A DNA stretch of 32,000 bases, taken from positions 870,001 through 902,000 of the forward strand of contig OY780959.1 in assembly GCA_963675915.1 (NCBI GenBank), given 5' to 3'. The DNA comes from Coprobacillaceae bacterium. GTDB lineage: Bacteria; Bacillota_I; Bacilli_A; Erysipelotrichales; Coprobacillaceae. A model generated the notes under the pieces. The model saw only the letters and a list, made by a program, of their open reading frames with translations. It had not been told where the DNA came from and did no database searches. This document shows, piece after piece, positions 983-25,638 of the stretch (the stretch's first letter is position 1; each line of letters starts with the position of its first letter). The translations under genes and the position numbers were made by a program.

Positions 983-985
983 ATT

Positions 986-5082: not shown

Positions 5083-5099
5083 AACTTCTCCTTTTCTTA

Positions 5100-5312
5100 A
5101 ACAAAAAAACGCCCTTGAATAAGGACGTAATAAACGCGGTACCACCTTAATTCGTGCCAATTGGCACGCTCTCTTTGTCTTAACGCGACTAACGTTTACT
5201 TCTACTTATTTCAAAGTAACTCTTCACGAGTGTCCCATAGTTTCCAAATCAATATTCTCACCAGCCATATTGTCTCTGCAATTTATTCACTATTTAATCC
5301 CGATCATTAGAT
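5100..5312 (-). promoter_or_regulatory. T-box leader (tRNA-sensing riboswitch) of the hisS-aspS operon, with an intrinsic terminator
   Basis: The minus strand reads AATTAAGGTGGTACCGCG (5152-5135), the conserved T-box sequence. This is followed by the hairpin CGUCCUU-AUUC-AAGGGCG (5127-5110) and a U7 tract (5109-5103). Upstream are an AGAGA motif and a candidate specifier region GGGACACUCG (GACAC at 5234-5230). Confidence 0.8.
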
Positions 5313-5319
5313 TAAGTTC

Positions 5320-5348
5320 ATTATATAAAAACCACTGATAAAAATCAA
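5320..5348 (-). promoter_or_regulatory. Sigma-A-type promoter P1 upstream of the T-box leader
   Basis: Minus strand: TTGATT (5348-5343), 17-nt spacer, TATAAT (5325-5320). The module is duplicated at 5672-5700. Confidence 0.6.
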
Positions 5349-5496
5349 GTGATATCAACCCCAGACCCCAATAATATTTGGGCCGGTTAAAAGGCGAATA
5401 ATCACTTACCAAAATCGGTCCTTAATTTAAACAAAAATGAAATCACCCCACTTTAAAAGCCACCAATCCTGCCGATAAGCACTTTTAAAAACGGTT

Positions 5497-5610
5497 GGAA
5501 AATTAATGATGCTAGAACCTTCAAGGTCCTAGCACCATTTTGGTATTACAAGAAGACTGTCTTTTATTCAAAGCACCACCTCCATTATAATCATAATTCA
5601 ATTGAATAGT
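5497..5610 (-). repeat. Intergenic repeat R1 (about 110 nt) containing a terminator-like hairpin
   Basis: Similar by eye, with scattered mismatches, to 6543-6660. The hairpin arms are at 5508-5519 and 5525-5536. All 12 positions pair in the minus-strand RNA (two are G-U), whereas the plus strand would have A-C mismatches. The hairpin is followed on the minus strand by AUUAAUUUU. Confidence 0.7.
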
Positions 5611-5671
5611 TGAATCCCCAGCTAAACAGTTTTAAAATCAAGCTATTTATCCAGGTCTTCTTCCTAATCAC

Positions 5672-5700
5672 ATTATATAACAATAATTGATAAAAATCAA
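5672..5700 (-). promoter_or_regulatory. Duplicate promoter module P2 with no obvious downstream gene
   Basis: Minus strand: TTGATT (5700-5695), 17-nt spacer, TATAAT (5677-5672). The -35 and -10 blocks and the flanking bases (cattatataa / tgataaaaatcaagtg) are identical to P1. The next downstream element is the R1 hairpin. Confidence 0.5.
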
Positions 5701-5752
5701 GTGTCGCAATCCCTAATCCCAGTGCTTAGCCGATGGCCCTAAAAACGGGATT

Positions 5753-6445
5753 TTATTTGGCAAAGAAAGAAATCGATCCGATTTGATAAAGACTGGCCTG
5801 GTTGTCGAAGCGTTCCTGCGGTTCGCCCTCCGGTTTGGCCTCAACCATGATTTGGGCCGCTTCTTTGATTTTTGTGACAATCGAAGCCGGATAACTCAAA
5901 TCGTGATGGCTGGCATAGACAATGTCGAAACAGTTAGCCATCTTTTCCAGTTTAGCCATGCTGGCAATCAAAGCCTCGAAGTTGCGGCCGGGACCAAACA
6001 TAAAGATCGGGACTTTTTGGATTGAATCTCCACCAATCAAAAAACGTTTGTCCCGTTCCAGCAAAGCGATGCTGCCAGGAGTGTGGCCTGGCAGATGAAG
6101 CACCTCGAAACGGTAAGCTCCGATTTCGATTAAATCGCCCTCCCAGATGGGCTGCATTGCAACCGGGTTGACATTTTTGGCTTGATAGTAATCAAACTCA
6201 CTTGGATGCATGAATCGGATAGGAAAGTCCTTGGAATCACCGACATGATCACTGTCGCCATGGGTGAACACCACTTTGACAGGCAAGTTTATAAACTGTT
6301 GAATTTGACGGGCCAGCTTGTTGCCGCCAACCCCGGTATCGATCAGCACCATTTCTTTGGCACCCACCACCAAAAAACTGCGGACAAAACCCATCTCGAT
6401 ACTGTAAAAATTTTCCCTGATCAGGTTGAATTGATATTGTTCCAT
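5753..6445 (-). CDS. MBL-fold metallo-hydrolase
   Basis: VVFTHGDSDHVGD (an HxHxDH-like motif reading H-G-D-S-D-H), LHLPGHTPGSIALL and ASHH. I chose the start at MEQYQF (ATG 6445) behind GGGAGGA. An extended -10 box, TGCTACAAT, is present at about 6482-6490. Confidence 0.8.
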   Translation of the reverse strand: MEQYQFNLIRENFYSIEMGFVRSFLVVGAKEMVLIDTGVGGNKLARQIQQFINLPVKVVFTHGDSDHVGDSKDFPIRFMHPSEFDYYQAKNVNPVAMQPIWEGDLIEIGAYRFEVLHLPGHTPGSIALLERDKRFLIGGDSIQKVPIFMFGPGRNFEALIASMAKLEKMANCFDIVYASHHDLSYPASIVTKIKEAAQIMVEAKPEGEPQERFDNQASLYQIGSISFFAK

Positions 6446-6542
6446 CTTTTTTCCTCCCGGTTTTCCCTTTTGCTTATAGATATTGTAGCATGTCCAACCT
6501 AACTGTCCTAACATTCTTATTATTGATGTTGCAAAATATTTC

Positions 6543-6660
6543 CTAAAATTAATGGTGCTAGAACCTTTAAGGTTCTAGCACCATTTCTATATTACAAGAA
6601 GATTTACTTTTATTCAAAGCACCACCTCCGTTATAATACCCATTTATTTGATTCAATTAA
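6543..6660 (-). repeat. Intergenic repeat R2 with a perfect 12-bp hairpin, probably the terminator of the sipW operon
   Basis: ggtgctagaacc (6554-6565), tttaa, ggttctagcacc (6571-6582), followed on the minus strand by AUUAAUUUU. It lies 80 nt downstream of the sipW stop and is a copy of R1. Confidence 0.7.
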
Positions 6661-6662
6661 TA

Positions 6663-7154
6663 CTATGATGACTTGATGTCTTTTTTTTCAAACAGACGCG
6701 GCATATAGGATATTAGAATCATCAGCGCAACCAGTGAAGCCAGAGCGATTTTTCCCTCGAAACTGACTACATAGACTGCCACATATCCCAGATATGGAAT
6801 TGTGAACATCGGCACCCCGACAATGTTGTTGAAGGCAACCGGTTTGAAATCCGGTGTATTGTTTGCATCACCTTTAGTGGTATAAAGCATATTTTCTTCA
6901 TCTATTTCAATCACTCGGTGAGTCACTAGAGTGTTGGCATTCATATAGAATGTAATCGAATCGTTCACTTCAATCTTGTCGAAATCCTCATCTACGAAAA
7001 TCAGACTTCCAACATGATATGTGGGTTCCATGCTGCCCGAAAGGACAACATAAGGAGTCACGCCAAACAATCTTGGAACATACATCATTGCCATAAAAGC
7101 AATGATGATAACTATTACAGTATTTGTTGCTATATTGATAACTTTACCAGTCAT
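6663..7154 (-). CDS. sipW: Signal peptidase I, archaeal/ER (SipW) type
   Basis: 163 aa with an N-terminal TM segment, VLSGSMEPT (catalytic Ser), THRV (His in place of the Lys of P-type SPases), TKGDAN and a C-terminal TM segment, as in Bacillus subtilis SipW. Its start overlaps the upstream stop (TAATG). Confidence 0.85.
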   Translation of the reverse strand: MTGKVINIATNTVIVIIIAFMAMMYVPRLFGVTPYVVLSGSMEPTYHVGSLIFVDEDFDKIEVNDSITFYMNANTLVTHRVIEIDEENMLYTTKGDANNTPDFKPVAFNNIVGVPMFTIPYLGYVAVYVVSFEGKIALASLVALMILISYMPRLFEKKDIKSS

Positions 7155-8038
7155 TACTCTTGGTCTCTTCTTTTCTTACCAAAGAATAAGAATCTAATCA
7201 AAATTGCCAGCAACAATAATGAGAAAAATCCAACTACTGCGATAGTGCTTGTATTCCAGAAACCGCCTGATGTAGGGACATCGTCATCGTCGATATCGAT
7301 ATCATCGTCATCATCAACGTCAGTTCCATCGTCATCATCAACATCAGTTCCATCATCACCTGTACCGTCATCGGTTGTCGGCACATCATCATCATCGATA
7401 TCTGTACCGGTATCTCCTTGGTCAGGTTCGACTACAGTAATTCCAGTTCCGGTACCCGGATTGATAATAACTGTGGTTCCATCACCTGCGGTATCGTCAG
7501 CGTCACCACCACCGCCACCTCCACCGATAAGGGTGTAGATGAAAGTGATTTGAACTCCGTCTTGGTCGATAGTTGCCGATTTAGCTGCGGCATCAACAGC
7601 ATAGTTTTCAATCTCTTCTGCAATCACACTGACCAAGGCTCCTTTTTCAGTAACCTTTACCAGTGGGGTTGCCAATTGATTTCCTTCTTCATCAAGGTAG
7701 TTTACCTGATATGTGACTTGATCGATAATTAATCGATACTGCGCCACGAATGTCTCTTCACGGGTGACTTCATCTGGAAGTTCCGGAGAATATCCAGTGA
7801 AGTAGTACCCTTCTTCAGGCATTACCAATGCATTAAGCAAATCTTTTTGAGTTTCATCAAAGACATCGCCGTAATCATAAACTGCGATCAGCTCATCATC
7901 ATCAAGGATCATTCCATGACTTCCGGCTTTAAGGATAATGTTATAACTGCGTAACGCATCGACTGGGGTAAAAGCCATAAACATCATTACCAGTGCACTG
8001 AGCATTACGAACAATGATTTACTTTTCACTTTTACCAC
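7154..8038 (-). CDS. Surface adhesin-like protein: signal peptide, Listeria-Bacteroides-repeat-like and MucBP-like domains, Gly6 and poly-Asp stalk, LPXTG-like C-terminal anchor
   Basis: The signal peptide reads KSKSLFVMLSALVMMFMAFTPVDA. PEEGYYFTGYSPELP...FVAQY is tentatively a Flg_new-like repeat, and YQVNYLDEEGNQLATP...ITFIYT is tentatively MucBP-like. The stalk reads GGGGGGDADD...DVDDDDGTDVDDDDDIDIDDDD. The C-terminus is VPTSGG, a hydrophobic segment, then GKKRRDQE. The start is GTG at 8038 or 8029. Confidence 0.7.
   Translation of the reverse strand: MVKVKSKSLFVMLSALVMMFMAFTPVDALRSYNIILKAGSHGMILDDDELIAVYDYGDVFDETQKDLLNALVMPEEGYYFTGYSPELPDEVTREETFVAQYRLIIDQVTYQVNYLDEEGNQLATPLVKVTEKGALVSVIAEEIENYAVDAAAKSATIDQDGVQITFIYTLIGGGGGGGDADDTAGDGTTVIINPGTGTGITVVEPDQGDTGTDIDDDDVPTTDDGTGDDGTDVDDDDGTDVDDDDDIDIDDDDVPTSGGFWNTSTIAVVGFFSLLLLAILIRFLFFGKKRRDQE
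7303..7357 (-). repeat. 24-bp tandem repeat (about 2.3 copies) inside the acidic stalk coding region
   Basis: Units 7303-7326 and 7327-7350 differ at one base. On the minus strand they encode GTDVDDDD GTDVDDDD. Confidence 0.8.
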
Positions 8039-8651
8039 CCTTTCTAATTAAGATGAGTACTGCAGCCGCCCCGACAATCAAACCACCGTAGATAATCGGT
8101 GAAATCGAGTTGTCGCCAGTTGGCGGAGTATAAGGAATAACTTCCTCAACCGAGAAGACTATTGCAATCTCTCCGGTTTGACCTTGATAATCGTTGTTTG
8201 CGGAATCACCATCAAGGTAAATATTGATATTGACTGTCATTGTTTCACCCGGCATCAAAGCACCAAGCAAGATATTGTTTTCAACTACCAGGAATTCAGA
8301 TCCGATAGTAACTTCATTGTTACCGATAATCGCCTGGAAGATATCTTCGCTGCCATCATCGATTGTGAATTCATAAACAGCAGTTCCATCTCCTTTTTCA
8401 GCGATATTATCAAGAATTTCACTGGCTACATAGAAACGCATTTCATTGTCACTGTCATTTACCAGATCAAATGTTGCAGTTCTGGTTTCACCAGGGAACA
8501 TAGTTGTAAAATCAATTGCCCCACCTTCAAGAGAAATGAAATCACCAGCTTCTCCAAGATAGGTAATCGTATCCGCTGCGGCTACATTGCCAATTGACAT
8601 AAAACATATCAGACAGATGGCTAATCCAAAAATTAATTTTTTCATTTTCAT
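8019..8651 (-). CDS. Secreted beta-sandwich protein, tentatively TasA/camelysin-like, with a C-terminal sorting-signal-like anchor
   Basis: The signal peptide ends in NVAAA. The PGE strand motif occurs twice (MFPGETRTATFDLVND and LMPGETMTVNINIY), and NNDYQGQTGEIAIVFSVEE resembles the camelysin/TasA C-terminal motif. The C-terminus is TPPTGDNS, a TM segment (IIYGGLIVGAAAVLILI), then RKGGKSEK. Confidence 0.55.
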   Translation of the reverse strand: MKMKKLIFGLAICLICFMSIGNVAAADTITYLGEAGDFISLEGGAIDFTTMFPGETRTATFDLVNDSDNEMRFYVASEILDNIAEKGDGTAVYEFTIDDGSEDIFQAIIGNNEVTIGSEFLVVENNILLGALMPGETMTVNINIYLDGDSANNDYQGQTGEIAIVFSVEEVIPYTPPTGDNSISPIIYGGLIVGAAAVLILIRKGGKSEK

Positions 8652-8659
8652 CCCTCTTT

Positions 8660-9280
8660 CTATAACTCTACTGAAACAATATTATCATCGTCAAATGTTG
8701 CAACTACGCCCCATTCAGCCAACAAGGCATCTTGACCAGCAAATGTTTGCACCGCATCAGCGTAGAATTCCAAATGAGCGATTGTATTGGCATATAAGTT
8801 ATGATTTTCATCAGTATCCAGATATGAATACTCTTCCAAGATCAAAGCTGATTCGCCAGGTTTTAACGGTTTGGTGTAGTAAGCATAGGTAACTTCGCCA
8901 TATTCATCACCAGGCAAAACAATCCAACCATCTTCGATGGTAAACTTGATTTCTTCAGGGTCGAGGTAATTATCAGGATCATCAGGTGTTGTCATGCTTT
9001 TGTTGTCTTGAGCGTCAGCCCAGTAACGATAAATAGTCACTCTGACATATGCATCATAATCTTCGGTGTTTTCAATCGCCACACTTTTGTCAACAACCTC
9101 ACCAGGTACAGCCACTCCATCATGGGTGCCGGTAACATTCAAATTGATGCCAATAGCGGCAGTTGTAACATCCTTAGTGGTTTGAAAACTGCTTTCGATC
9201 ACACCGTAAGTTCCACGAATACCAAAACCAACCCCAATCAATAAACATAATATTAATCCCATTGTTATTTTCTTCTTCAT
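8660..9280 (-). CDS. TasA/BsaA-like secreted protein, paralogue A
   Basis: MKKKITMGLILCLLIGVGFGIRGTYGV, then VPGEVVDKSVAIENTEDYDAYVRV and YADAVQTFAG. The other paralogues share the motifs PG[DE]xxxK...AY[VI]R and A.A[IV]Q. I preferred the ATG at 9280 (RBS AGGTGA) over the track GTG at 9289. Confidence 0.6.
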   Translation of the reverse strand: MKKKITMGLILCLLIGVGFGIRGTYGVIESSFQTTKDVTTAAIGINLNVTGTHDGVAVPGEVVDKSVAIENTEDYDAYVRVTIYRYWADAQDNKSMTTPDDPDNYLDPEEIKFTIEDGWIVLPGDEYGEVTYAYYTKPLKPGESALILEEYSYLDTDENHNLYANTIAHLEFYADAVQTFAGQDALLAEWGVVATFDDDNIVSVEL

Positions 9281-9304
9281 ATTTCTCACCTCTATATCAC
9301 TTGT

Positions 9305-9359: not shown

Positions 9360-9407
9360 TTGACTATTGGATAAATTCTTTGCGATAATCGATAAATCTT
9401 GTATAAT
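9360..9407 (+). promoter_or_regulatory. Candidate promoter(s) of the transglutaminase/pseudopilus operon
   Basis: TTGACT (9360-9365), 18-nt spacer, GATAAT (9384-9389). An alternative TATAAT lies at 9402-9407. The RBS GAGGTG (9416-9421) precedes the ATG at 9426. Confidence 0.35.
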
Positions 9408-9425: not shown

Positions 9426-10349
9426 ATGATGAAAAAATGGTTACTAGTGTTACTTGCTTTGACACTTACAGGATGTAATGGCGCCATGGCGGCCGAAGAT
9501 GTCAGTCCAATCCAAGCGGATGACCCAATCGAATATCTCGACAATACCCCGGTATTGCATCTTACCAGTTTTGATGAAGCCAAAACCGAAGGTAATGATT
9601 TGGTCCGTCTGGATCTTAGTCATACCAGTGAAGGTTACATCGGTGTTCATTATCTGGGCGACAATATCAAACCTAAAACCCAGATAACCTTGCCCGATGG
9701 GACGGTCTACACTTACAATCTGACTGGGAACATCGATTATTTCAACCTACCCGAACCAAGTGGTGAATATACGGTCTCCATCTATGAAAATACGACTGGA
9801 ACCAAGTATTCAAAACTGTACAAAACCACCTTCGATGTTGAACAAATCAACGATCATATCGCATTTTTATATAATAACCAATTCATCAATTTCAATGAAG
9901 ATACCCTGGCAGTCGCTAAATCCAGCAAGGTTGTGGCAACGGCCACCAGTGAACTTGACAAAATCCAGTTGATCTTCAATTATGTGGTTTCCCATCTAGA
10001 CTACGACCATGATCTGGCCAAGACGGTAACTTACGGTTATATCCCCGACCTGGACGACGTGCTCGAAAGCCAAACAGGTATCTGTTTTGATTATGCGGCT
10101 TTGATGGCCAGTATGCTAAGAACCCAGAATATCGCCACCAAAATGGAATTTGGCTATGTCAATGAAGTCTATCACGCCTGGATCAGTGTTTACACTGACG
10201 AAACCGGATGGATCAATAATTTCATCCACTTCGAAAACGACACCTGGCAAATGATGGATCCGACTTTCGTCTCCCAAAATCCCAACAGTTCCAAAGTAAA
10301 AGAGTTCACTACCAATACCAGCAACTATCAAATCAAGTACATCTACTAA
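9426..10349 (+). CDS. Transglutaminase-core (Cys-His-Asp) lipoprotein
   Basis: Lipobox LTLTGC in the signal peptide. Transglutaminase-like core: QTGICFDYAALMASMLR (Cys), YHAWISVY (His), MMDPTF (Asp). Confidence 0.85.
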   Translation: MMKKWLLVLLALTLTGCNGAMAAEDVSPIQADDPIEYLDNTPVLHLTSFDEAKTEGNDLVRLDLSHTSEGYIGVHYLGDNIKPKTQITLPDGTVYTYNLTGNIDYFNLPEPSGEYTVSIYENTTGTKYSKLYKTTFDVEQINDHIAFLYNNQFINFNEDTLAVAKSSKVVATATSELDKIQLIFNYVVSHLDYDHDLAKTVTYGYIPDLDDVLESQTGICFDYAALMASMLRTQNIATKMEFGYVNEVYHAWISVYTDETGWINNFIHFENDTWQMMDPTFVSQNPNSSKVKEFTTNTSNYQIKYIY

Positions 10350-10362
10350 AGAAGGTGATCAT

Positions 10363-11298
10363 ATGAAAAATCAAGACTATGATTTAATAATCAGTTTTTC
10401 CAAACAACTTTATCTGATCACTTCCACCGGCGAGGACATCACCGGTGCTTTGAACATTCTCCTCGATTCCTGCGATGATGCCAAAATGAAAGAATTGATC
10501 AGCTCAATCACCGGAGCCCTGGACTCGACGACGTTGACCGATGCCTTGAAAAATACCGGTTTCTTCGATGACCATTATCTAAGTGTCGTTGATATCGGTC
10601 TAGTCTCAGGTAACCTCGACAGCATCTTCTTATATCTTAGCGACTATTACCAAAACGAAAAAGACAACCAGAACTTGCTTTTTAAAACGCTTAGCTATCC
10701 TTTGACAGTCACTGCCGTGATGGTTGGAGTTCTAGTGATCCTGGCAACTCGGGTTTTGCCGATCTTCAATTCAATTTATCAGTCAATCGGCTCAGAGTTG
10801 TCGGGAATTGGTAAATACACTTTGTACTTTGGCTACTTTATCAATGATTATTTCATCTATATCCTGGCAATCGTAGCGATTGCCTTTATCATCATCTTGG
10901 TCTTGATGCGCCTTGGCAAATTGGACTTTTTCAAGTCTATCCGCCTGGAGCAGCAAACCGCCAATGAGCTCTATGCCCTTTATAACCTGCTAAGAGCCGG
11001 AATAATTCTCGACGAGGCAGTCCGACTGACCTTCGGCAGCCCGGTGGAATTGGATCAGGTCATGGCTAAGCGGTTGACTCCATTGGAATTGCAATTGATC
11101 AACGTAGCGAGCACCACTGGTAACTTCGACCAGGTCCTGGAAATCCTGCACCAGGAATATGCCCGCAAGACCAGCACCAAAATCGATAATATCGTCACTA
11201 CATTTGAAATGAGCTTTATCGGCGGATTCACGGTGATCGTGGCAATCATCCTTTTGTCGATAATCCTGCCGTTGTTTACGATTTTGATCAATCTATGA
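10363..11298 (+). CDS. PilC/GspF/ComGB-like platform protein (T2SS-F family, short form)
   Basis: 311 aa with two degenerate T2SSF-like repeats (SFSKQLYLITSTGEDITGAL...VVDIGLVSGNLD and ELYALYNLLRAGIILDEAV...INVASTTGNFDQVL) and three predicted TM segments. RBS AAGGTGA. Confidence 0.75.
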   Translation: MKNQDYDLIISFSKQLYLITSTGEDITGALNILLDSCDDAKMKELISSITGALDSTTLTDALKNTGFFDDHYLSVVDIGLVSGNLDSIFLYLSDYYQNEKDNQNLLFKTLSYPLTVTAVMVGVLVILATRVLPIFNSIYQSIGSELSGIGKYTLYFGYFINDYFIYILAIVAIAFIIILVLMRLGKLDFFKSIRLEQQTANELYALYNLLRAGIILDEAVRLTFGSPVELDQVMAKRLTPLELQLINVASTTGNFDQVLEILHQEYARKTSTKIDNIVTTFEMSFIGGFTVIVAIILLSIILPLFTILINL

Positions 11299-11579
11299 AA
11301 TATCTAAAACTAGCGGCTTTGATCTGCATTCTTGCCACAGCCCTGTATGCGTTCGACCGCTTCGCCGGATTTGAAAAACGGACTTCGATTGACAATCTCG
11401 AACAGACCATCGATTACAAAATTATCCAATGTTATATCAATGAAGGCCGGTATCCCGGGTCCCTTGAATATCTTCAAGAAAACTATCAGCTGGATTTCGA
11501 CAACCAAAAATTTCAGGTTTATCTGATTCCCTTGGGGGGAAATCTCAAACCGGATGTGACGGTGATTGAATATGAATAA
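11295..11579 (+). CDS. ComGC/GspG-like pilin-like protein lacking a prepilin cleavage motif
   Basis: N-terminal hydrophobic helix MKYLKLAALICILATALYAF with no G/FTLxE motif. IIQCYINEGRYPGSLEYLQENY resembles the 'G.YP.sL..L' motif of pseudopilin globular domains. ATGA start/stop overlap with the platform gene. Confidence 0.5.
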   Translation: MKYLKLAALICILATALYAFDRFAGFEKRTSIDNLEQTIDYKIIQCYINEGRYPGSLEYLQENYQLDFDNQKFQVYLIPLGGNLKPDVTVIEYE

Positions 11580-12003
11580 GAAAAATTTACTTATCTTTGC
11601 GATTACAAGTATTTTTGTCGGGGCAGCCTTGATGGTGGCATTGTTGATTGTCAACAACTACCAGACCACCTTAACCACCAATCAGGACATTATCAACAAC
11701 CAATTGGCCTTGTCATTCATCAATGAAAACACCAAACGCTACGATACGGTTGAAGTTATCAAGAACCCGGAAGCCAGTGTGCTAAAACTTGATGATGGCA
11801 GTGGCTATTCCACCTACCTTTACACAATCGAAGAGTATCTTTATGAAGCTTATCTGGCTGACACCATGGCGTTCGAACCTGATTACGGCAACCAGGTTAT
11901 TGCCAGCAATCCAATCGATTTTGCAATCGAGAACGACATGTTGATTGTGACTGACAGCCTGACTTCGAATTTCATTTTGATCGATCTTGGAGGTAAATTA
12001 TGA
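11572..12003 (+). CDS. Pilin-like or minor-pilin-like membrane-anchored protein
   Basis: MNKKNLLIFAITSIFVGAALMVALLIV is a single N-terminal TM segment. I preferred the ATG at 11572 behind GGTGA over the track TTG at 11566. It overlaps the upstream stop by 8 nt. Confidence 0.45.
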   Translation: MNKKNLLIFAITSIFVGAALMVALLIVNNYQTTLTTNQDIINNQLALSFINENTKRYDTVEVIKNPEASVLKLDDGSGYSTYLYTIEEYLYEAYLADTMAFEPDYGNQVIASNPIDFAIENDMLIVTDSLTSNFILIDLGGKL

Positions 12004-12365
12004 GACGAGAATTTTCACTTATAGAACTTACCATCAATATTTTCATCTTCATCATCGTCATCGCCGTGGTCTTGCAACTGCTTATTGCCACTAACGAGAT
12101 CAATACCACCAACGAGATTGATGCCAAATCGACTTTGCAGCTAATCAACATCACCAGTATTCTCGATAATCCTGACATCGAGTTGGACGACTACTATACC
12201 CTCGACAATGACAAAATCTACTTCGATGAATTTAACCGAAATGTGACCCACGATAAAATGCTTTATTACATCGAGATTATTTCCGAAAACAAAAGTTACA
12301 CATTGGGCATTTATGACAAATATGACAATGTAGTTGATTTATTAGACTATGAGGTGGTATTATGA
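12000..12365 (+). CDS. Minor-pilin-like protein with a degenerate class III (prepilin) signal
   Basis: MRRE-FSLIELTINIFIFIIV has Phe+1 and Glu+5 as in type IV prepilins, but Glu replaces Gly at position -1. RBS GGAGGT. ATGA overlap with the upstream gene. Confidence 0.55.
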   Translation: MRREFSLIELTINIFIFIIVIAVVLQLLIATNEINTTNEIDAKSTLQLINITSILDNPDIELDDYYTLDNDKIYFDEFNRNVTHDKMLYYIEIISENKSYTLGIYDKYDNVVDLLDYEVVL

Positions 12366-12748
12366 GAATAAGACCAGGACTGATCAGTCTGTTCAATATC
12401 TTCATTGTTTTGATTCTTATTATCCTCAGTCTGATTGGATACACCAATAGCCTCAACGCTCAAGAGATTATCCTCAACAACAAAGAACATAATCTTACCT
12501 ATCTTCAAGCTAAAAGCCTGGCTAACGGGTTCATCAATAATCTGGAAACTTCCGGACTCGAAGAACTCGAAAATGAATATCAGTTCGACATCGATGGCTT
12601 TGTCATTACTTATGATATCGAACTTGATTATCAACAATATCTGCGTCTGGTCTACAATTACCAGACTCATGAGATTCTTCGTGAGACTCTGATCAATGAA
12701 TCGGACTATCAGGTTGATGACACGATACCAGTTTTCAAAGGAGAGTAA
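12362..12748 (+). CDS. ComGG-like minor-pilin-like protein
   Basis: MRIRPG-LISLFNIFIVLILIIL has Gly at -1 but no Glu+5, as in ComGG/GspK-type minor pilins. LTYLQAKSLANGF resembles the ComGG helix. RBS GAGGTGG. ATGA overlap with the upstream gene. Confidence 0.5.
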   Translation: MRIRPGLISLFNIFIVLILIILSLIGYTNSLNAQEIILNNKEHNLTYLQAKSLANGFINNLETSGLEELENEYQFDIDGFVITYDIELDYQQYLRLVYNYQTHEILRETLINESDYQVDDTIPVFKGE

Positions 12749-12749
12749 T

Positions 12750-13820
12750 ATGGATAACAACAATATGAACATAGCAGCCCTGCTTCAAGAAGCAATCCGG
12801 AAAAATGCTTCGGATATTTTTATCGAAGCCAATACGCCGGTAAAATTCAAACGCGACAAGGTATTATACGAACTGAACAATCAAAAGCTCAATATTCGTG
12901 ACACCCGCGAATTGATCACTCAAATCTACAAACATTCAAACCGCAGCATGGATACTCTGCTGAAAAACGGCGATGACGACTTCGCCTTTTCAATCAACAA
13001 TTTATCCCGCTTCAGGGTCAGCATGTTTTTGCAACGAGGTTCTCTGGCTTGTGTAATTCGAATCATTGCCTTCACCCTGCCTGATTTTTCCCAGCTGCAT
13101 ATTCCCAAGGAAGTTATTGAACTTGGTGATTATTCAAAAGGATTGATCCTTTTCACCGGTCCTTCAGGTTCCGGTAAATCTACCACTTTGGCTTGCATTA
13201 TCGATTATATAAATCATAATTTCGCCAAACATATCATCACCCTTGAGGATCCAATCGAGTATCTGCATTCCCATGACAAGTCGATCATCTCCCAACGGGA
13301 AGTGGGAACCGACACCAAATCATACATCAAGGGGCTGCGTGCTTCTTTGCGGCAATCGCCAGATGTCATCTTGCTTGGTGAAATGCGTGACCAGGAAACT
13401 GTGGAAGTGGCGATTACCGCCAGCGAAACCGGCCATCTAGTGTTGTCAACCCTTCATACCATTGGAGCGAGCAACAGTATAAACCGGATCATCGATTCCT
13501 TCCCGGCCAGCGAGCAACAACAGATTGCTTTCCAATTGTCATTATCTCTGACTGCAGTCGTTTCTCAACACTTGATTCCAAGTATCGAAGGAAATTTGAT
13601 TCCAGTATTTGAAATCATGGTTGTCAATCCAGCCATCGCCAATTTGATCAGGGAACGCAAGATTCATCAAATTGATACGATTGTTTCTTGGAGTACCGAG
13701 GACAATATGGTTACCCTCGACAAGGGCCTGATCAACCTTTACAATGATGAAAAGATTACTCGAGAAACAGTCTTGAAATACTGCAACAATCCCAAATTTG
13801 TCGAAAGCAAAATCAAATAA
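12750..13820 (+). CDS. pilT: PilT-family (twitching/retraction-type) hexameric ATPase
   Basis: Walker A GPSGSGKSTT, Asp box ITLEDPIEY, Walker B DVILLGEMRD and His box GHLVLSTLHT. The PilT-type motifs FPASEQQQIAFQLS and PAIANLIRERKIHQI (AIRNLIRE-like) are present. I chose the ATG at 12750 behind AAAGGAGAG, two nt after the upstream stop. Confidence 0.9.
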   Translation: MDNNNMNIAALLQEAIRKNASDIFIEANTPVKFKRDKVLYELNNQKLNIRDTRELITQIYKHSNRSMDTLLKNGDDDFAFSINNLSRFRVSMFLQRGSLACVIRIIAFTLPDFSQLHIPKEVIELGDYSKGLILFTGPSGSGKSTTLACIIDYINHNFAKHIITLEDPIEYLHSHDKSIISQREVGTDTKSYIKGLRASLRQSPDVILLGEMRDQETVEVAITASETGHLVLSTLHTIGASNSINRIIDSFPASEQQQIAFQLSLSLTAVVSQHLIPSIEGNLIPVFEIMVVNPAIANLIRERKIHQIDTIVSWSTEDNMVTLDKGLINLYNDEKITRETVLKYCNNPKFVESKIK

Positions 13821-14035
13821 CATAAAAGACATATCGTTTTTGTTTCAATAGTTAATACCTATTGTAAACTAATTGCGATATGTCTTTTGTTTAGTAGAAT
13901 CTATATTTAGTTTTAAGATTCGTCAAGTTTAGATCTCAACCTATTCTTGTGCTAGTAATTTTATCTATGGTTTAATAAAACTTTATATTGCACTTGTTAT
14001 GGATCACAGTATAAGTGTTTCTCGTTCAAATATGA

Positions 14036-14794
14036 TTATTCATATGATAAGATTTGAACACTATCCCAATCATCAATTCTAGGTGGAGTCCCACCGTCAT
14101 TATCAGGTGTAAAGTTATCTGCTTGGATAGCTTCAGCTGTCATAACGATTGAATATTCATCGTCAATATTGTAATTATTTAAGTCCATTCCAGGGAATGT
14201 TACAGTGGTAAACAATGTAACGTCTTCTGTTGCGCTTAAGATTGCATCTGAGGATTCAGCATCGCCAGCATCATAGTATGCAGTAACTTCTAATGTTTTA
14301 ACTACTGGATCATCAGGAGCTGCCGGTGCAGTTTCAACAGTTCCAATAACTAGATTCCATTCATTTACTTCGTCGATATTCAACCAAGATAGAACATCAT
14401 CAGGTTCAACATCGAGTGCAGTATTCATATCATTATCACCATTTACATCAGTAACAGTGATCAACATTTGAATTCGAACGTATGCATCTTGTGAATCTGT
14501 TTCAACAGTCACGACAGGTTCTTTTGAATAGACATCACCTGGCATAACATCAGTAAATGATAACCCGGTAAACACTTCATCAGGTTCTTCACCAGTAGTA
14601 GTTTCTTCACCGGCTAAAACACCTTCACTGGCTGCTGAAGTTTCAGTAAAAGAAATGTCGACATGACCAAAAGTTACGGTATTGGTCAAATCACCTTCAG
14701 TATCGGTAAAGTAAGCTAATGTGAATCCTGTCGCTGCACTAAGAGCCAATGCGATAGCCGCCACGCCAGCAACAACTTTTTTGTTAAATTTCAT
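14036..14794 (-). CDS. TasA/BsaA-like secreted protein, paralogue B, with a SipW-cognate-type signal peptide
   Basis: The N-terminus MKFNKKVVAGVAAIALALSAATGFTLAYFTDTEG resembles Bacillus TasA/CalY N-termini (GGGTFAYFSD). Also VMPGDVYSKEPVVTVETDSQDAYVRI and TAEAIQADN. RBS GGAGGA. Confidence 0.7.
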   Translation of the reverse strand: MKFNKKVVAGVAAIALALSAATGFTLAYFTDTEGDLTNTVTFGHVDISFTETSAASEGVLAGEETTTGEEPDEVFTGLSFTDVMPGDVYSKEPVVTVETDSQDAYVRIQMLITVTDVNGDNDMNTALDVEPDDVLSWLNIDEVNEWNLVIGTVETAPAAPDDPVVKTLEVTAYYDAGDAESSDAILSATEDVTLFTTVTFPGMDLNNYNIDDEYSIVMTAEAIQADNFTPDNDGGTPPRIDDWDSVQILSYE

Positions 14795-14875
14795 TTTTCT
14801 TTCCTCCTATAAATTTTCTTGTAATATGGTTTTTGTATTTTGAGAGTACAAGCCCTGTTGTCATTGTTAAGGAAT

Positions 14876-15604
14876 CTATTCTCCATAATCTGCGAAGCTG
14901 ATCAATTCAGCGGTATGATTATCAACATTGGCTGCTTGAATCGCATAGGCTTTGACATCGATTCTAAGATTAGGATAATATCCATCTTCGTCAGGTACAA
15001 TACCAGTTCCGACAGTGTTATTGAATCCCACTTGCATTTGAGCAAATAATGCTGTAGTCATATAATCAGTGTCAGTCAAGGCATTATTGTACACGAAGAA
15101 ATCACCTAGTTGATCATCAAGCGGTACGATTATATCCGAATTATCTGTCCAGTTAACCAGATCATAGTCTAGAGGAGTAGCCAGATAAGCTTCAAAATCT
15201 GTTCTGGTCATTTCCACTTCATCTACCGAATAGATCAACTCAAGAGCCACATAACAATCAGCACTGGCTGCTGTTTTGGCAATTGTCGGATCTTTTGGAA
15301 TCATATCACCTGGCAAATAAGCATGAGCTAAATCAAAACCCAAATCAGCTTCACCAATATAAGCTGGATTGGTTGATAAACCATGGTTCCAACCATCGAT
15401 TTCTGGGGAATCCAGATTGTCGTCAGGATCAGTAAATGCATATCCATCCCAAGTTTCTTCCCGCAAAAGAATTTCAACTCCAGAAGAAGCAGTAAATACA
15501 TTCGTAATTGGCCCTTCAGAGTCAGTCAAAAACGCATAAGACAGAGACAATGAGAAACCAAAAACAAGCAATGCCGCCATAAAGAACATTAAGATTTTCT
15601 TCAT
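14876..15604 (-). CDS. TasA/BsaA-like secreted protein, paralogue C
   Basis: MKKILMFFMAALLVFGFSLSLSYAFLTDSEG, YLPGDMIPKDPTIAKTAASADCYVAL and VKAYAIQAAN. It lies 81 nt upstream of paralogue B on the same strand. Confidence 0.65.
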   Translation of the reverse strand: MKKILMFFMAALLVFGFSLSLSYAFLTDSEGPITNVFTASSGVEILLREETWDGYAFTDPDDNLDSPEIDGWNHGLSTNPAYIGEADLGFDLAHAYLPGDMIPKDPTIAKTAASADCYVALELIYSVDEVEMTRTDFEAYLATPLDYDLVNWTDNSDIIVPLDDQLGDFFVYNNALTDTDYMTTALFAQMQVGFNNTVGTGIVPDEDGYYPNLRIDVKAYAIQAANVDNHTAELISFADYGE

Positions 15605-15810: not shown

Positions 15811-15842
15811 TAAACAAAAAAATCGGGAATCAATCGATTCCC
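15811..15842 (-). terminator. Intrinsic terminator of the regulator gene
   Basis: Minus strand: GGGAATC-GATT-GATTCCC followed by a GAUUUUUUU tract. The stem overlaps the stop codon. A second small hairpin, accgga-tatt-tccggt, lies at 15795-15810. Confidence 0.6.
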
Positions 15843-17032
15843 AATTTTCGTGTCGTACAGGTTATGTAAATATCCTTTTTCTTCAAATTGCGGTAAAACA
15901 GTTTTTCAATCCGGCTGATTACGATTTTACTGTCATCCAACGAGCACATGCTTAAAAGACAACTGTACTGGTTAGGCGACACTTGAGAAATCGAATCGCA
16001 GCTGCGCAGATAGTTCTCAAGAACATTTTCCAGATATCCCATCCCGCCATTGACAATTTCCCGGTATTTCGGTGAATCGCAATCAACTGCCTTCATCATC
16101 TTGACTGTCACCAGCATCAAACTGGATTCAATTCCGCTTCTATTCGACAACCTTACTCCCAGATTGCATAAATTCTTAAATGCCCCATATTCGCATACCA
16201 ACGCATGTCCGACTTCCTTGGGAATGATATCGAATGTTACATTATCGATATTTTCACTTTCAGGCAGCAGCTGGCTTAAAACTTCCTCATATGTCCGCAT
16301 CAGTTCATTACTGGGAAGCACCCCTAATTCATGGTTTAAAATATATTTAGCAGTTTCATATTTCACTTTTGCGAGTTCAAATTCGCGATTTTCCCCCAAC
16401 GCCAGAATTTCATAACGATAGAAGTCTTCCTCGGTATGGTCAAGCGTCAAAGCATTATTGCTGTAAAAATAAAGATCATCAAATAACTGTTCATTGTACA
16501 GTACTTGCAAAAAATCTTTGGTCATTTTCAAGAAGACATTGTGATAATACAATGAATTCTGCATAATCAAAGAATCATAATCAAAATGAGCAAACAGACG
16601 TTCCCGATAAATCTCGGTAGCCTTTTTATAATGCTCGATTTTGATTGGTGTTGGCATATTCTCATTGATTCTAGTGATGGTATCATAAAAAATTTCAAAA
16701 TCAATAATCAGTTTGACATTGGAATTCCAATAATAAGTTCCCGAGCCGGTCATGATCAGTTCGGCATCAGGCCAAACTTTTTTCATTACCGTCCTGAGTC
16801 GGTAAACCAGATTTTTCAAAGCTCCAATCGGATTGGAACTTTCGTTGTTCTCCCAAAGATAGTCGCATAAATCCGATGAAGAGATGATGCTGTTATGATG
16901 ACTTACAAAATAATAAAGGAGTTTTGTAAGTCTTTTTGATTTCAACATCGATAAATTTAGTTCACCTTGCTCATTGCTGATCTTAAACTCACCAAAAGAA
17001 TACACGTTCAATACACAAGTATATTCCATCAT
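15830..17032 (-). CDS. SARP-like regulator: OmpR-type winged helix, BTAD-like helical domain and a degenerate GGDEF-like C-terminal domain
   Basis: FGEFKI...SKRLTKLLYYFVSHHNSIISSSDLCDYLWENNESSNPIGALKNLVYRLR is Trans_reg_C-like. HYKKATEIYRERLF...KYETAKYILNHELGVLPSNELMRTYEEV is BTAD-like. The C-terminus LMLVTVKMMKAVDCD...LENYLRSCDSISQVSPNQYSCLL aligns by eye with the GGDEF-domain pattern DxD..FK..ND...LR..D...R.GGDEF..LL, with SPNQY in place of GGDEF. Confidence 0.65.
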   Translation of the reverse strand: MMEYTCVLNVYSFGEFKISNEQGELNLSMLKSKRLTKLLYYFVSHHNSIISSSDLCDYLWENNESSNPIGALKNLVYRLRTVMKKVWPDAELIMTGSGTYYWNSNVKLIIDFEIFYDTITRINENMPTPIKIEHYKKATEIYRERLFAHFDYDSLIMQNSLYYHNVFLKMTKDFLQVLYNEQLFDDLYFYSNNALTLDHTEEDFYRYEILALGENREFELAKVKYETAKYILNHELGVLPSNELMRTYEEVLSQLLPESENIDNVTFDIIPKEVGHALVCEYGAFKNLCNLGVRLSNRSGIESSLMLVTVKMMKAVDCDSPKYREIVNGGMGYLENVLENYLRSCDSISQVSPNQYSCLLSMCSLDDSKIVISRIEKLFYRNLKKKDIYITCTTRKLGID

Positions 17033-17297: not shown

Positions 17298-19522
17298 TGG
17301 ATGATTCTTTTTACATCGTAAATACCGATGATCTTGTCGAGGTTTTTGAATGAAACTTTCAACGCCTCATTGTTGTCAACAGCTACGGTCAGTTTGATAA
17401 ACGCCTTGCCATCTTCGGTATCGGCATTGATCTTAAGAATACTGATTTTGCTTTGGCCCAGCACATTGATGATTTCATTGAGCAAATTAGCCCGGTCAAG
17501 CGCCCGGATTTCAATATCAGCATCGAACTTGGTCGCCGCCGTCTGGGCGTTGTCCCAGTAAACTTCGATCAGTCGCTTTTTGATTTCCGGATTTTGGACA
17601 TTCGGACAAGATGCCCGGTGGACTTTTACCCCTTGGCCTTTGGATACGAATCCTACGATATCATCACCGGGAATCGGATTGCAACATTTCGACAGGGTGA
17701 TTTTGATTCCGTCGATTCCGGCCACCACAACCCCGGTCTTGGATTGCTTCGCCTTGGCCTGGCTGGCCTGGATATTGTTGTTTCTTTGAAGAATCCGACT
17801 GAGATTGTCGATAATCCCGGTCTTTTTCGGGATAACCTTGTCGATGACATTCATCGGCAAGAGACTCTTTTTTCCGATAAAGAAGAGAATATCGTCAAAA
17901 CTTTTGGCCCCAAAAGCCCCTAGATAAGTCTTATATGTTTCCTCTTTAAGGAATTTCTCTTCATCAAGACGGCGCTTTTTGATCTCGTCTTTAAGTATCT
18001 TACGTCCAGTGTCAATCATCTCGCGGCGGCTTTGAGCCTCCTCTTTGGTGATGAATTGACGGATCTTGTTGCGGGCTCCGGTGGTCCGGACAAACTTCAA
18101 CCACGCCCCGTTTGGCGTTGAGTTCTTGTTGGTTTTGATTTCACAGACATCTCCAGTGTTCAAGATGGTATCAATCGGTACCATCACGTTATTAACCAAC
18201 GCACCCACGCAGGTATTTCCGACCTCGCTGTGAATCCGGTAGGCAAAGTCAATTGGTGTTGACCCATTAGGCAGCTCGATGATTTTGCCTTGAGGTGTCA
18301 AGACATAGACATTGGCCTCGAAGATATCCCGTTTAAGGCTGTCATAATACTCCTTGGCATCACGGTCCTTGATATCATCAGATAAAGTGATGAAGTCCCG
18401 GAGCCATTGTAGTTTTTCCCCGATTTCCTGTTGTTCTTTTTGCGAAGAATAACCACGGTTTTCCTTATAACGCCAGTGAGCCGCAACCCCAAGCTCCGCT
18501 AGTTCGTCCATTAGTTCGGTTCGAATCTGGATTTCATAAGTATGGCCGTCATCCCCGATAATCGAGGTGTGGAGCGACTGATACATATTCGGCTTTGGCA
18601 TGGCGATGTAATCCTTGAACCGGCCGGGGATTGGGCGGTAATTTTCATGGATCAGACCTAGAATCGAATAACAAGACAACTTTGTGTCCGTAATGATCCT
18701 CAAGGCATAGAGGTCGTAAAGTTCATCGAAACGCTTGTTTTTGATGAACATTTTTTTGTAGATACTGTAAATCGATTTTGCTCTTCCGACAATCCGGTAT
18801 GAGAATTTGTTGCTATCAAGCAGGTGCGATACATCACTAATCATTTTATTGACGTATTTTTCCCGCTGCACTTCTTTCTCTTTTAAGAGCAAAACAATAT
18901 CATTATAAGCAATCGGATCAAGATACTTCAAAGAAAGATTTTCCAGTTCGACCTTGATATCAGCCAACCCCAAACGGTGTGCAATCGGAGTATATACCTC
19001 CAGAGTCTCTCTGGCAATCCGTTTTTGTTTCTCCGGTTTCATATACTGGAGCGTACGCATATTATGAAGACGATCCGAGAATTTGATTAAAATAACTCGG
19101 ATATCCTTGGCCATCGCAATATAAATCTTGCGGTGGTTTTCAGCATAAACTTCATCTTCATCCTTAAAATTCATTTTGTTGATCTTGGTAACCCCTTCAA
19201 CCAGGGTGGTGACTTCGTCGCCGAAGCGTTCAACCATTTCCTCACGAGGAACATGGCAGTCTTCCATAACATCATGAAGCAGCCCCGCAGCCAGAGTTTT
19301 TGGACCGGTCTGCAAAGTTGACAGGATGTAGGCAACCCAGATCAGATGAATCGTATAAGGCTCACCGCTTTTGCGTTTCTGGTCGGCATGTTTGATCATG
19401 ATAAAATCATGAGCTCTGTCGATCAACTCCAAATCTTCCTTATTGGTGATGTATGTTTTGGCGACATCGATGACGTCCTGATAAGTTACTTTGTCATTGG
19501 CGCCCTTGGCATTTTTTATCAT
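17294..19522 (-). CDS. relA: Bifunctional (p)ppGpp synthetase/hydrolase Rel (RSH long form)
   Basis: 742 aa with an HD hydrolase domain (LLHDVMEDC), a synthetase domain (YRPIPGRFKDYIAMPKPNMYQSLHT), a TGS domain (VYVLTPQGKIIELPNGSTPIDFAY) and a C-terminal ACT-like domain. Confidence 0.95.
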   Translation of the reverse strand: MIKNAKGANDKVTYQDVIDVAKTYITNKEDLELIDRAHDFIMIKHADQKRKSGEPYTIHLIWVAYILSTLQTGPKTLAAGLLHDVMEDCHVPREEMVERFGDEVTTLVEGVTKINKMNFKDEDEVYAENHRKIYIAMAKDIRVILIKFSDRLHNMRTLQYMKPEKQKRIARETLEVYTPIAHRLGLADIKVELENLSLKYLDPIAYNDIVLLLKEKEVQREKYVNKMISDVSHLLDSNKFSYRIVGRAKSIYSIYKKMFIKNKRFDELYDLYALRIITDTKLSCYSILGLIHENYRPIPGRFKDYIAMPKPNMYQSLHTSIIGDDGHTYEIQIRTELMDELAELGVAAHWRYKENRGYSSQKEQQEIGEKLQWLRDFITLSDDIKDRDAKEYYDSLKRDIFEANVYVLTPQGKIIELPNGSTPIDFAYRIHSEVGNTCVGALVNNVMVPIDTILNTGDVCEIKTNKNSTPNGAWLKFVRTTGARNKIRQFITKEEAQSRREMIDTGRKILKDEIKKRRLDEEKFLKEETYKTYLGAFGAKSFDDILFFIGKKSLLPMNVIDKVIPKKTGIIDNLSRILQRNNNIQASQAKAKQSKTGVVVAGIDGIKITLSKCCNPIPGDDIVGFVSKGQGVKVHRASCPNVQNPEIKKRLIEVYWDNAQTAATKFDADIEIRALDRANLLNEIINVLGQSKISILKINADTEDGKAFIKLTVAVDNNEALKVSFKNLDKIIGIYDVKRIIH

Positions 19523-19557
19523 AATTCACTGCCTCCCTTCCGATATTTGTTTACAGA

Positions 19558-20076
19558 TTAATATTTCAATAATGAGATGACTTCGTAACCGTCAAGATGA
19601 CTGATTCCATCAAGAGCTTCCAGTTCGATTACAAAACCGATTCCGACAACTTTCCCGCCAAGGCGTTCTACCAGTTTGACAGTTGCTTCAACAGTTCCCC
19701 CAGTTGCCAGCAAGTCATCGACGATAATCACGTTTTGTCCTGGTTTGATTGCATCTTTGTGAACATGGACTTCATTAGTCCCATATTCAAGTTCATATGC
19801 ATATGATTCGGTTTCCCGAGGCAGTTTGCCTGGTTTGCGGGCTGGAACGAAACCAGCTCCGATTTCATAAGCAACCGGACATCCGAAAATGAAACCTCGT
19901 GATTCAGGTCCCACTACGACATCGATTGGTGCTTCTAATGTTTTGGTCCAGTCAACGAATTTGGTGACTGTCTCTTTGAATGCTTCACTATTTTGTAACA
20001 GTGGCGTAATATCTCTGAATAATACCCCTTCTTCCGGGAAATCCGGAATATCTGCAATATATTTTTTCAAGTCCAT
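19558..20076 (-). CDS. apt: Adenine phosphoribosyltransferase
   Basis: 172 aa with FRDITPLL and the PRPP-binding motif [13 protein letters not shown]. Confidence 0.95.
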
Positions 20077-20122
20077 TTATATGTTCCTCCCTTGAAATAT
20101 TTTAACATTTTATTGATTTTTT

Positions 20123-25620: not shown

Positions 25621-25638
25621 TTTATCTTCACCCTCCTA

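Follow-up and report, generated by a model that had tools for sequence, protein, structure and literature searches.

Current models of type IV filaments place a PilB-type ATPase and a prepilin peptidase in the universal core of the machine and treat PilT as an optional add-on for retraction, and the type IVa model of Denise et al. 2019 allows the prepilin peptidase to be encoded elsewhere (PMC6668835). Filaments driven by a single motor also exist, for example that of CpaF (PMC12019362), and for the MSHA pilus PilT can act in favour of extension (PMC9815625). In C. perfringens, type IV pilus proteins are needed for BsaC and BsaA, encoded by the sipW operon, to be secreted (PMC11580942). Here, we describe a seven-gene operon of a Coprobacillaceae bacterium, located at 9426-13820 (+) of a 32,000-nucleotide stretch of contig OY780959.1 (assembly GCA_963675915.1, positions 870,001 to 902,000; the window hereafter). 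This operon, which is common in human and animal gut Firmicutes, breaks the established pattern: PilT, a platform protein and pilin-like subunits are kept, PilB and the prepilin peptidase PilD are dropped, and an enzyme is gained. No description of the operon was found in the literature on DUF4860, PilT, SipW, transglutaminase, Lachnospiraceae and type IV filament topics.

The operon shares several features with the canonical Gram-positive type IVa locus, as found in C. perfringens, C. difficile and Holdemanella (locus L018, with the gene order NlpC/P60, pilB, pilT, pilC, pilin, pilD, pilM, pilO-like, large pilin). Its PilT is nested among the PilTs of such loci, its platform has two T2SSF domains, and one of its subunits has a class III pilin N-terminus with Glu5. 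Unlike the canonical arrangement pilB-pilT-pilC-pilin-pilD-pilMNO, however, the operon has no PilB, PilD, PilMNO or evident major pilin; its platform lacks about 50 N-terminal residues and its pilin-like subunit lacks a glycine at the position preceding the cleavage site, Gly(-1). Three of its four small proteins, namely s1, s2 (DUF4860) and s4, match no known pilin family and occur in no canonical locus fetched, and a transglutaminase-like lipoprotein is obligatory in it. The use of one ATPase for the whole machine is similar to that of the Tad pilus with its bifunctional CpaF (PMC12019362) and of Com pili, which employ ComGA alone, but the motors of those systems are of the assembly-type lineage (CpaF/TadA and ComGA) and are accompanied by a prepilin peptidase, whereas the motor of the operon belongs to the retraction lineage of PilT. 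The sipW-bsa secretion of C. perfringens, the only such case met in the literature, likewise links type IV pilus-type machinery to SipW-dependent, TasA-like matrix proteins; it requires PilA3, PilB2, PilC1, PilD and PilMNO, and not PilT (PMC11580942), whereas only PilT and a platform are present here and the link comes from gene neighbourhood. The comG operon of Bacilli is also a compact monoderm operon combining an ATPase, a platform and several small pilin-like proteins, but the operon differs from it in the failure of the ComGA and ComGB models, the lack of ComGC, the gene order and the extra enzyme gene.

Anatomy of the operon and its proteins

As judged from the map of open reading frames (ORFs) and the junction sequences, the operon is self-contained and encodes, in order, a transglutaminase-like lipoprotein, a PilC/GspF-type platform protein, four small bitopic proteins (s1 to s4) and a PilT-family ATPase (Table 1). 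We have high confidence in the anatomy set out in this section. A previous sequence-only reading of this DNA had described a platform gene, four small genes and an ATPase gene in this order. The coordinates of these six ORFs were reproduced and their order is as given, but the operon begins one gene earlier, at the lipoprotein gene at 9426, which that reading had missed along with the SipW and TasA-like fibre genes around the operon; likewise, the ATPase is encoded last in the window, as claimed, but not universally, since two related loci have it first. The lipoprotein gene stops at 10349 and is followed by a ribosome-binding site and, 13 nt on, by the platform ATG at 10363. The translational coupling proposed earlier is evident in the junction sequences: the start codons at 11295, 12000 and 12362 lie in ATGA overlaps, that at 11572 lies in an overlap of 8 nt, and a single nucleotide separates s4 from the ATPase gene at 12750. 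The last three start codons are preceded by Shine-Dalgarno-like purine runs. Two promoter-like pairs of hexamers, TTGACT-18-GATAAT with an upstream TG and TTGCGA-16-TATAAT, were recognised upstream by consensus match.

The operon's only ATPase truly belongs to the PilT family, an assignment already made by the sequence-only reading and based here on hidden Markov model scores, matches to solved structures and a tree. The PilT/PilU model TIGR01420 scores 412.3 bits (cut-off 319.1), above all sister models (TraJ 155, ComGA 149.7 with a cut-off of 300, GspE 144 and PilB 120). In the comparison with solved structures, PilT and PilU chains take the first nine places with 228-308 bits (PilT chains 246-308, the best being 2ewv at 308), while DotB reaches 129 bits and GspE and PilB about 100 bits. 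The protein carries Walker A at residue 137 (GPSGSGKST), the Asp box at 166 (EDPIEY), Walker B at 205 (DVILLGEMRD) and the His box at 227 (TGHLVLSTLHT), and both of the PilT hallmarks named earlier are present, FPASEQQQI at 251 and AIANLIRE at 295. In agreement with the earlier description, there is no N-terminal extension and no CxxC motif: the protein aligns from residue 5, has no N1/MshEN domain and contains three isolated cysteines but no tetracysteine zinc site. In a neighbour-joining tree of 134 ATPases from the fetched loci, built without bootstrap and without ComGA sequences and rooted on adjacent PilB proteins, the operon-type ATPases, including that of the window, nest among Firmicutes PilTs, far from PilB. 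The scores, structures and tree thus contradict a placement in ComGA or PilB, the result by which the earlier reading could have been refuted. Nearly every PilT consensus residue is kept in them, the only consistent changes being H24F and the replacement of R..DG by K..DK, so that the sequence does not reveal the direction of the motor. The first change puts Phe in place of the His of the N-terminal ASDxH motif (residue 24) in 86% of operon-type ATPases, that of the window included; this His is conserved in both PilT and PilB.

The platform protein matches PF00482 (T2SSF) at 91 bits over two stretches, whereas the equivalog models of PilC, GspF and ComGB give 66-106 bits against cut-offs of 240-700 (ComGB, 65.8 vs 240). 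All operon-type platforms have only 11-25 residues ahead of the first T2SSF domain, compared to 62-81 in canonical PilC, and thus always lack its N-terminus of about 50 residues; the 69 residues of the L016 platform reflect an upstream ORF start. Platforms of the window's clade also have two internal deletions; compared with the Dorea orthologue, the platform of the window lacks about residues 194-204 and 244-262 (Dorea numbering). The platform tree, also neighbour-joining without bootstrap, mirrors the ATPase tree, indicating that the two proteins evolve as a unit. The nearest relatives of both are the pilT and pilC products of canonical pilB-pilT-pilC loci, and the ComGA and ComGB models stay far below their cut-offs, so the framing of the locus as a remodelled comG operon is not upheld.

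The four small genes had all been described as pilin-like, and this description holds for s3, is plausible for s2 and s4, and is open for s1. None of the four belongs to a curated family beyond DUF4860. The N-terminus of s3, MRRE/FSLIEL (the slash precedes residue 1), leads into a hydrophobic helix with Glu5, and this Glu is invariant in 12 orthologues. Residue -1 of s3 is E, D or K in the clade of the window, S in the Dorea/Lachnospiraceae clade and P in Oscillospiraceae; Gly(-1) is kept only in L037 (KKG/FTLIEV) and L046 (QRG/FTLIEV). The L046 orthologue passes PF07963 (35.5 vs 21.2 bits) and TIGR02532 (28.1 vs 16.3), while the s3 of the window, with Glu in place of Gly(-1), gave no N_methyl match at E <= 0.1. 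A profile of the s3 family compared with the PDB has type IV pilins as its best matches, with alignments that start at mature residue 1 and E-values that are weak (0.007-0.1), and an s3 orthologue shows weak sub-threshold matches to the ComGE and ComGF models. Prepilin peptidases need Gly at position -1, a requirement reportedly based on the PilA mutagenesis of Strom and Lory. It could be deduced from the loss of this residue that most s3 proteins are very unlikely to be matured, and s3 is, as judged from its sequence features, a genuine type IV pilin relative without a cleavable Gly(-1).

The s4 protein begins with MRIRPG/LISLF, has no Glu5 and keeps its G6, just ahead of the hydrophobic segment, invariant in 12 orthologues. 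In these features it appears to resemble a minor pseudopilin, and its profile searches against the PDB and Pfam gave no family match. The s2 protein is a DUF4860 member (PF16152, 39.7 bits). Queried as a single sequence it retrieves three near-identical proteins, whereas an alignment query retrieves at least 1035 DUF4860 clusters at 90% identity. Its AlphaFold2 (AF2) model, built from a 50-sequence alignment with a predicted local distance difference test score (pLDDT) of 87, has a helix at residues 3-56 followed by eight strands, a predicted shape that is plausibly pilin-like; a Foldseek search of the model against the PDB gave nothing significant (best E 0.1, TM <= 0.27). An alignment of s1 orthologues shows a conserved ectodomain pattern, CY..EG.YP..L.YL...YG, profile searches of s1 against Pfam and the PDB gave no match, and its single-sequence AF2 model of low confidence (pLDDT 65) consists of N-terminal helices and three strands. 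A similarity of the motif CY..EG.YP..L..L to the GspG/ComGC head domain was considered, but no test supported this likeness and it is not claimed.

The lipoprotein matches PF01841 (66 bits) and PF04473 (35 bits) and has the lipobox LTGC, whose Cys is kept in 10 of 11 orthologues. The Cys (GIC[FY]DYA), the His (YHAW) and the Asp are invariant, and the protein is thus predicted to be a catalytically intact Cys-His-Asp enzyme. Its gene is syntenic in every related locus. It holds the same position as the NlpC/P60 gene of the canonical L018 locus, and in both cases a papain-superfamily wall enzyme heads the locus; the Holdemanella gene encodes a peptidoglycan hydrolase and lies at 6075-7931 (+) of L018, just upstream of pilB.

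Conservation and origin of the arrangement

The identical seven-gene order occurs in 40 further loci, of which 11 are distinct genome loci and 29 are long metagenome loci, the latter collected by a DUF4860-seeded metagenome scan and two direct look-ups. Two more loci, L037 from a metagenome-assembled genome (MAG) of Christensenellales and L046 from an unclassified Bacillota MAG, have the permuted order ATPase-platform-s1-s2-s3-s4-lipoprotein. The carriers are Lachnospiraceae, Oscillospiraceae and Erysipelotrichaceae-like genomes, with Dorea, Oscillibacter and Pseudoflavonifractor among the named genera. The ATPase is 96% and 70% identical to those of two closed relatives and 58% identical to that of Dorea, and one Dorea ATPase protein cluster was found on 469 contigs. 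Close ATPase homologues (P0005 and L011) are also found under the labels of Alphaproteobacteria and Eggerthellaceae MAGs; the Firmicutes-type gene context suggests binning errors or recent transfers. The ratios of nonsynonymous to synonymous substitution rates (dN/dS) between the window and L001 are lowest for the ATPase gene (0.027), near 0.10 for the genes of lipoprotein and platform, and 0.15-0.17 for the four small genes. Such values over all seven genes indicate purifying selection on a working operon rather than a remnant.

The window contains no second T2SSE ATPase and no Peptidase_A24 among its non-nested ORFs of at least 110 aa over the 32 kb, as searched with Pfam and NCBIfam models, and a six-frame jackhmmer search agrees. 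All loci were also searched by jackhmmer with PilB, PilD, PilM and PilO of Holdemanella L018. PilB and PilD are absent within about 10 kb in all 42 other long loci, each of which has exactly one T2SSE ATPase and no A24 peptidase, while PilD was found in 11 canonical loci of the same fetched set. The earlier claim that the locus has no PilB/GspE/ComGA-type ATPase and no prepilin peptidase therefore holds for the 32-kb window and is extended to 42 further long loci. We can conclude that the arrangement without PilB and PilD is a conserved, selected design. PilM, PilN and PilO were found neither in the window nor in the related loci, except for an adjacent, oppositely oriented pilMNO set in L142, an Oscillospiraceae-type metagenome contig, where pilM, which runs off the end of the locus, and the pilN and pilO-like genes occupy 18747-20468 (-), about 6.5 kb downstream of the operon. 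Canonical type IV pilus assembly genes are thus also present in at least one carrier genome. A PADLOC analysis of the window gave only generic P-loop hits, which argues against a known defence system.

The remaining fetched PilT loci have the canonical pilB-pilT-pilC arrangement, and the lineage of the operon is best read as derived from such a type IVa locus by loss of pilB and pilD, as its sequence relationships suggest. The permuted loci L037 and L046, whose order starts with pilT-pilC and whose s3 has a canonical prepilin motif, look like an intermediate.

Possible role and competing explanations

The best overall reading of these data is an autonomous type IV filament variant without PilB that would act as a wall-crossing helper for matrix fibres; we give it about an even chance of being right, the role being inferred. 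An equally balanced judgement applies to the independence of the machine from PilB and PilD, whose absence is known from the loci. The helper role for fibres, taken by itself, is a tentative proposal that could well be wrong and is suggested by gene neighbourhood. In the window, as in L001, L002 and L006, the operon is flanked by SipW and TasA-like genes. Seven other loci (L008, L012, L087, L112, L117, L141 and L142) have a sortase-pilus operon immediately ahead of it in the same orientation, with only 10-90 nt between the end of the sortase-pilus operon and the transglutaminase-like gene. The products of the sortase-pilus operon are an adhesin, an LPXTG backbone pilin, a Cna_B protein and two sortases. 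Six of these loci are Oscillospiraceae-type contigs, and L012 is from a MAG labelled Peptostreptococcaceae.

In the proposed mechanism, a PilT-type hexamer would dock on the shortened platform as the only motor and would move the Glu5-bearing s3 into and out of a short membrane-proximal pseudopilus or stub, primed by s4, s2 and s1, the leader of s3 staying uncleaved in this lineage. The lipoprotein enzyme would work in the wall zone, either in peptidoglycan remodelling or in protein cross-linking. The module might be co-regulated with Sec-dependent surface fibres, which would be SipW-processed TasA/BsaA-like proteins here and sortase pili in Oscillospiraceae, and would probably help these fibres to pass through the thick wall or to become anchored in it, in the manner of a Gram-positive counterpart to the type II secretion piston. 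The single motor CpaF and the pro-extension role of PilT in the MSHA system make a sole PilT motor conceivable, and PilT is a plausible sole motor of the operon machine. The fullest form of this proposal is that monoderm gut bacteria have a new class of type IV filament machine, driven by a PilT-lineage motor alone, peptidase-independent with an uncleaved Glu5 subunit, obligatorily coupled to a transglutaminase-like lipoprotein, and serving as a wall-crossing or anchoring helper for Sec-exported SipW/TasA- and sortase-type fibres. Taken as a whole, this combination is rather unlikely to be correct in every part; if it were true, a motor known for retraction would be the engine of an export or assembly process. 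If the machine is autonomous, it could provide a natural experiment on what sets the direction of the motor in PilT versus PilB hexamers and a handle on the passage of large surface fibres through the peptidoglycan of thick-walled bacteria. If it is not, the operon would still represent a new, widespread set of accessory pilus proteins and the first functional context for DUF4860.

Several observations weigh against an autonomous fibre helper. The absence of PilB and PilD was seen at the level of the locus, and a set of pilB, pilD and major-pilin genes could be present elsewhere in the genome; L142 carries pilM-pilN-pilO 6.5 kb from the operon. The invariant Gly of s4 hints that a peptidase might still act on this protein and, together with the canonical G/FTLIE in the s3 of L037 and L046, suggests that a peptidase acts in at least some lineages. 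For canonical PilT hexamers, the accepted direction of turning is that of disassembly, and the operon-type ATPases show no sequence sign of reversed function. For s1, no relatives were detected in Pfam or the PDB, and for s2 it is the architecture only that suggests a pilin. Furthermore, the fibre link is frequent but not universal, since about two thirds of the long loci have no TasA-like or sortase genes within 10 kb; a universal SipW linkage was considered and dropped, as the S26 peptidase beside the Dorea ATPase is of the ordinary LepB type. Both trees, finally, are of the neighbour-joining kind described above.

Some of these observations support the main alternative, an accessory role of the operon for an ordinary type IVa pilus. 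Its ATPase would then serve retraction, and its platform and small proteins would act as second platform and minor pilins of a canonical machine (PilB, PilD, PilMNO and major pilin) whose genes lie elsewhere in the genome. We regard this as a serious minority possibility. It is in line with the glycine of s4, the s3 motifs of the two permuted loci and the pilMNO genes of L142, and with an ATPase that keeps the full PilT consensus, the AIRNLIRE motif included. Canonical pilB-pilT-pilC loci are present in related families (Holdemanella L018, Jutongia L017 and Gemmiger L052), and type IVa genes are often scattered, with pilT often unlinked from pilB (Denise et al., PMC6668835). However, an accessory module would not be expected to have its own co-evolving platform without the canonical N-terminus, nor a Glu5 subunit that in most lineages lacks Gly(-1) and that PilD could not mature; none of the canonical loci fetched contained s1, s2 or the transglutaminase-like gene. 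Among the 80 matches listed, no operon-carrying genome also gave a canonical PilT locus, which is weak evidence in the same direction.

Another possibility is that the PilB-less machine is autonomous, as proposed, but does not serve fibres at all. It might instead remodel the wall, take up DNA or export another cargo, and its fibre neighbours would then be coincidental. The long loci without fibre genes are consistent with this idea, as are the Dorea loci, which carry GGDEF, HD-domain and sigma/anti-sigma genes instead. Coincidence is nevertheless improbable in view of two unrelated fibre systems that recur at the same position, one of them closely upstream on the same strand in seven loci, and of the divergent promoter region that the operon of the window has in common with the SipW operon.

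Compared with the autonomous PilB-less machine favoured above, a divergent comG competence pseudopilus operon is very improbable. The Gram-positive host, a platform with small pilin-like genes, an ATPase of ComGA-like length and the weak sub-threshold ComGE and ComGF matches of an s3 orthologue would fit such an operon, but the ATPase scores 150 against a cut-off of 300 with ComGA and 412 with PilT, ComGB reaches 66 against 240, neither a ComGC-type major pilin nor ComC was found among the window ORFs, the gene order differs, and the ATPase and platform trees place these genes with pilT and pilC of type IVa loci. A decaying pilus remnant, which the losses of pilB, pilD and the s3 Gly(-1) and the platform truncations might suggest, is hardly credible for seven intact, translationally coupled ORFs with dN/dS of 0.03-0.17, identical synteny across families and intact catalytic motifs in both the ATPase and the transglutaminase-like enzyme.

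Flanking fibre genes and other features of the window

The genes at 6663-9289 form a block that is divergent from the operon and syntenic in L001 and L002. Within it, the MucBP gene shares 20 nt at its start with the end of the gene upstream and also overlaps, at its stop, the start of the SipW gene; an anchored protein similar to the MucBP protein is also encoded near the Dorea operon. On the other side, the genes at 14036-15604 are convergent to the operon and encode proteins with SipW-type signal peptides (...TLAYFTDTEG and ...SYAFLTDSEG). Except for the protein encoded at 14036-14794, the candidate SipW substrates were recognised by motif or sub-threshold matches. The hairpin between the ATPase gene and these convergent genes is probably a bidirectional terminator, as judged from its predicted fold; a simple terminator scan missed it owing to its long loop.

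Table 1. Coordinates of the operon, its flanking genes and its candidate control signals in the window
Feature	Position	Strand	Details
SipW-type signal peptidase gene	6663-7154	-	Archaeal/ER-type signal peptidase I; TIGR02228 111.9 bits vs cut-off 51.85
MucBP-domain protein gene	7154-8038	-	MucBP 25.6 bits; long Asp/Gly/Thr-rich acidic repeat, C-terminal membrane anchor
Secreted protein gene	8019-8651	-	
Secreted protein gene, weakly BsaA-like	8660-9289	-	TIGR04090 BsaA family E = 1e-4, below its cut-off
Promoter-like sites	9360-9407	+	Two overlapping sigma-70-like consensus matches; in the 136-nt divergent intergenic region common to the operon and the minus-strand fibre-gene operon
Transglutaminase-like lipoprotein gene, first in operon	9426-10349	+	307 aa
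PilC/GspF-type platform gene	10363-11298	+	311 aa, N-terminally truncated
s1, bitopic membrane protein gene	11295-11579	+	94 aa
s2, DUF4860 protein gene	11572-12003	+	143 aa
s3, type IV pilin-like protein gene	12000-12365	+	121 aa
s4, minor-pseudopilin-like protein gene	12362-12748	+	128 aa
PilT-family hexameric ATPase gene, sole secretion ATPase at the locus	12750-13820	+	356 aa
Hairpin with long loop, then TTTTGTTT	13822-13890	.	RNAfold -27.4 kcal/mol
TasA/camelysin-like protein gene	14036-14794	-	TIGR04088 20.9 bits (cut-off 19); PF12389 23.6 bits (cut-off 22.5)
Paralogous TasA/camelysin-like protein gene	14876-15604	-	Paralogue of 14036-14794
Winged-helix (Trans_reg_C) and BTAD regulator gene	15830-17032	-	400 aa; PF00486, PF03704

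Homologues of the winged-helix/BTAD regulator adjoin the operon in L001, L002, L009, L016, L086 and L088 and lie 8 kb off in L006. The regulator is absent from the Dorea loci L003-L005, in which the region ahead of the operon (134-6047) encodes two GGDEF proteins, one of which is a response-regulator protein that also has an HD domain, together with a small sigma-70 region-4 protein whose gene neighbours that of a 238-aa membrane protein, suggesting control by c-di-GMP or a sigma factor in that lineage.

Further along the window, genes at 25048-28395 (-) encode a 918-aa secreted VWA protein followed by a 190-aa protein whose signal peptide ends in ...AYTFAFFTDED, in the style of TasA/SipW-cognate proteins. 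This pair recalls BsaC and BsaA/B of C. perfringens, a likeness suggested by motif, with no curated family match beyond VWA. The remaining genes of the window are housekeeping genes, namely aspS, hisS, relA, apt, recJ, htpG, pfk and pnp. At 5118-5316 (-), at the 5' end of hisS-aspS, lies a T-box leader (RF00230, 131 bits), which overlaps the annotated TTG start of the hisS ORF at 5160.

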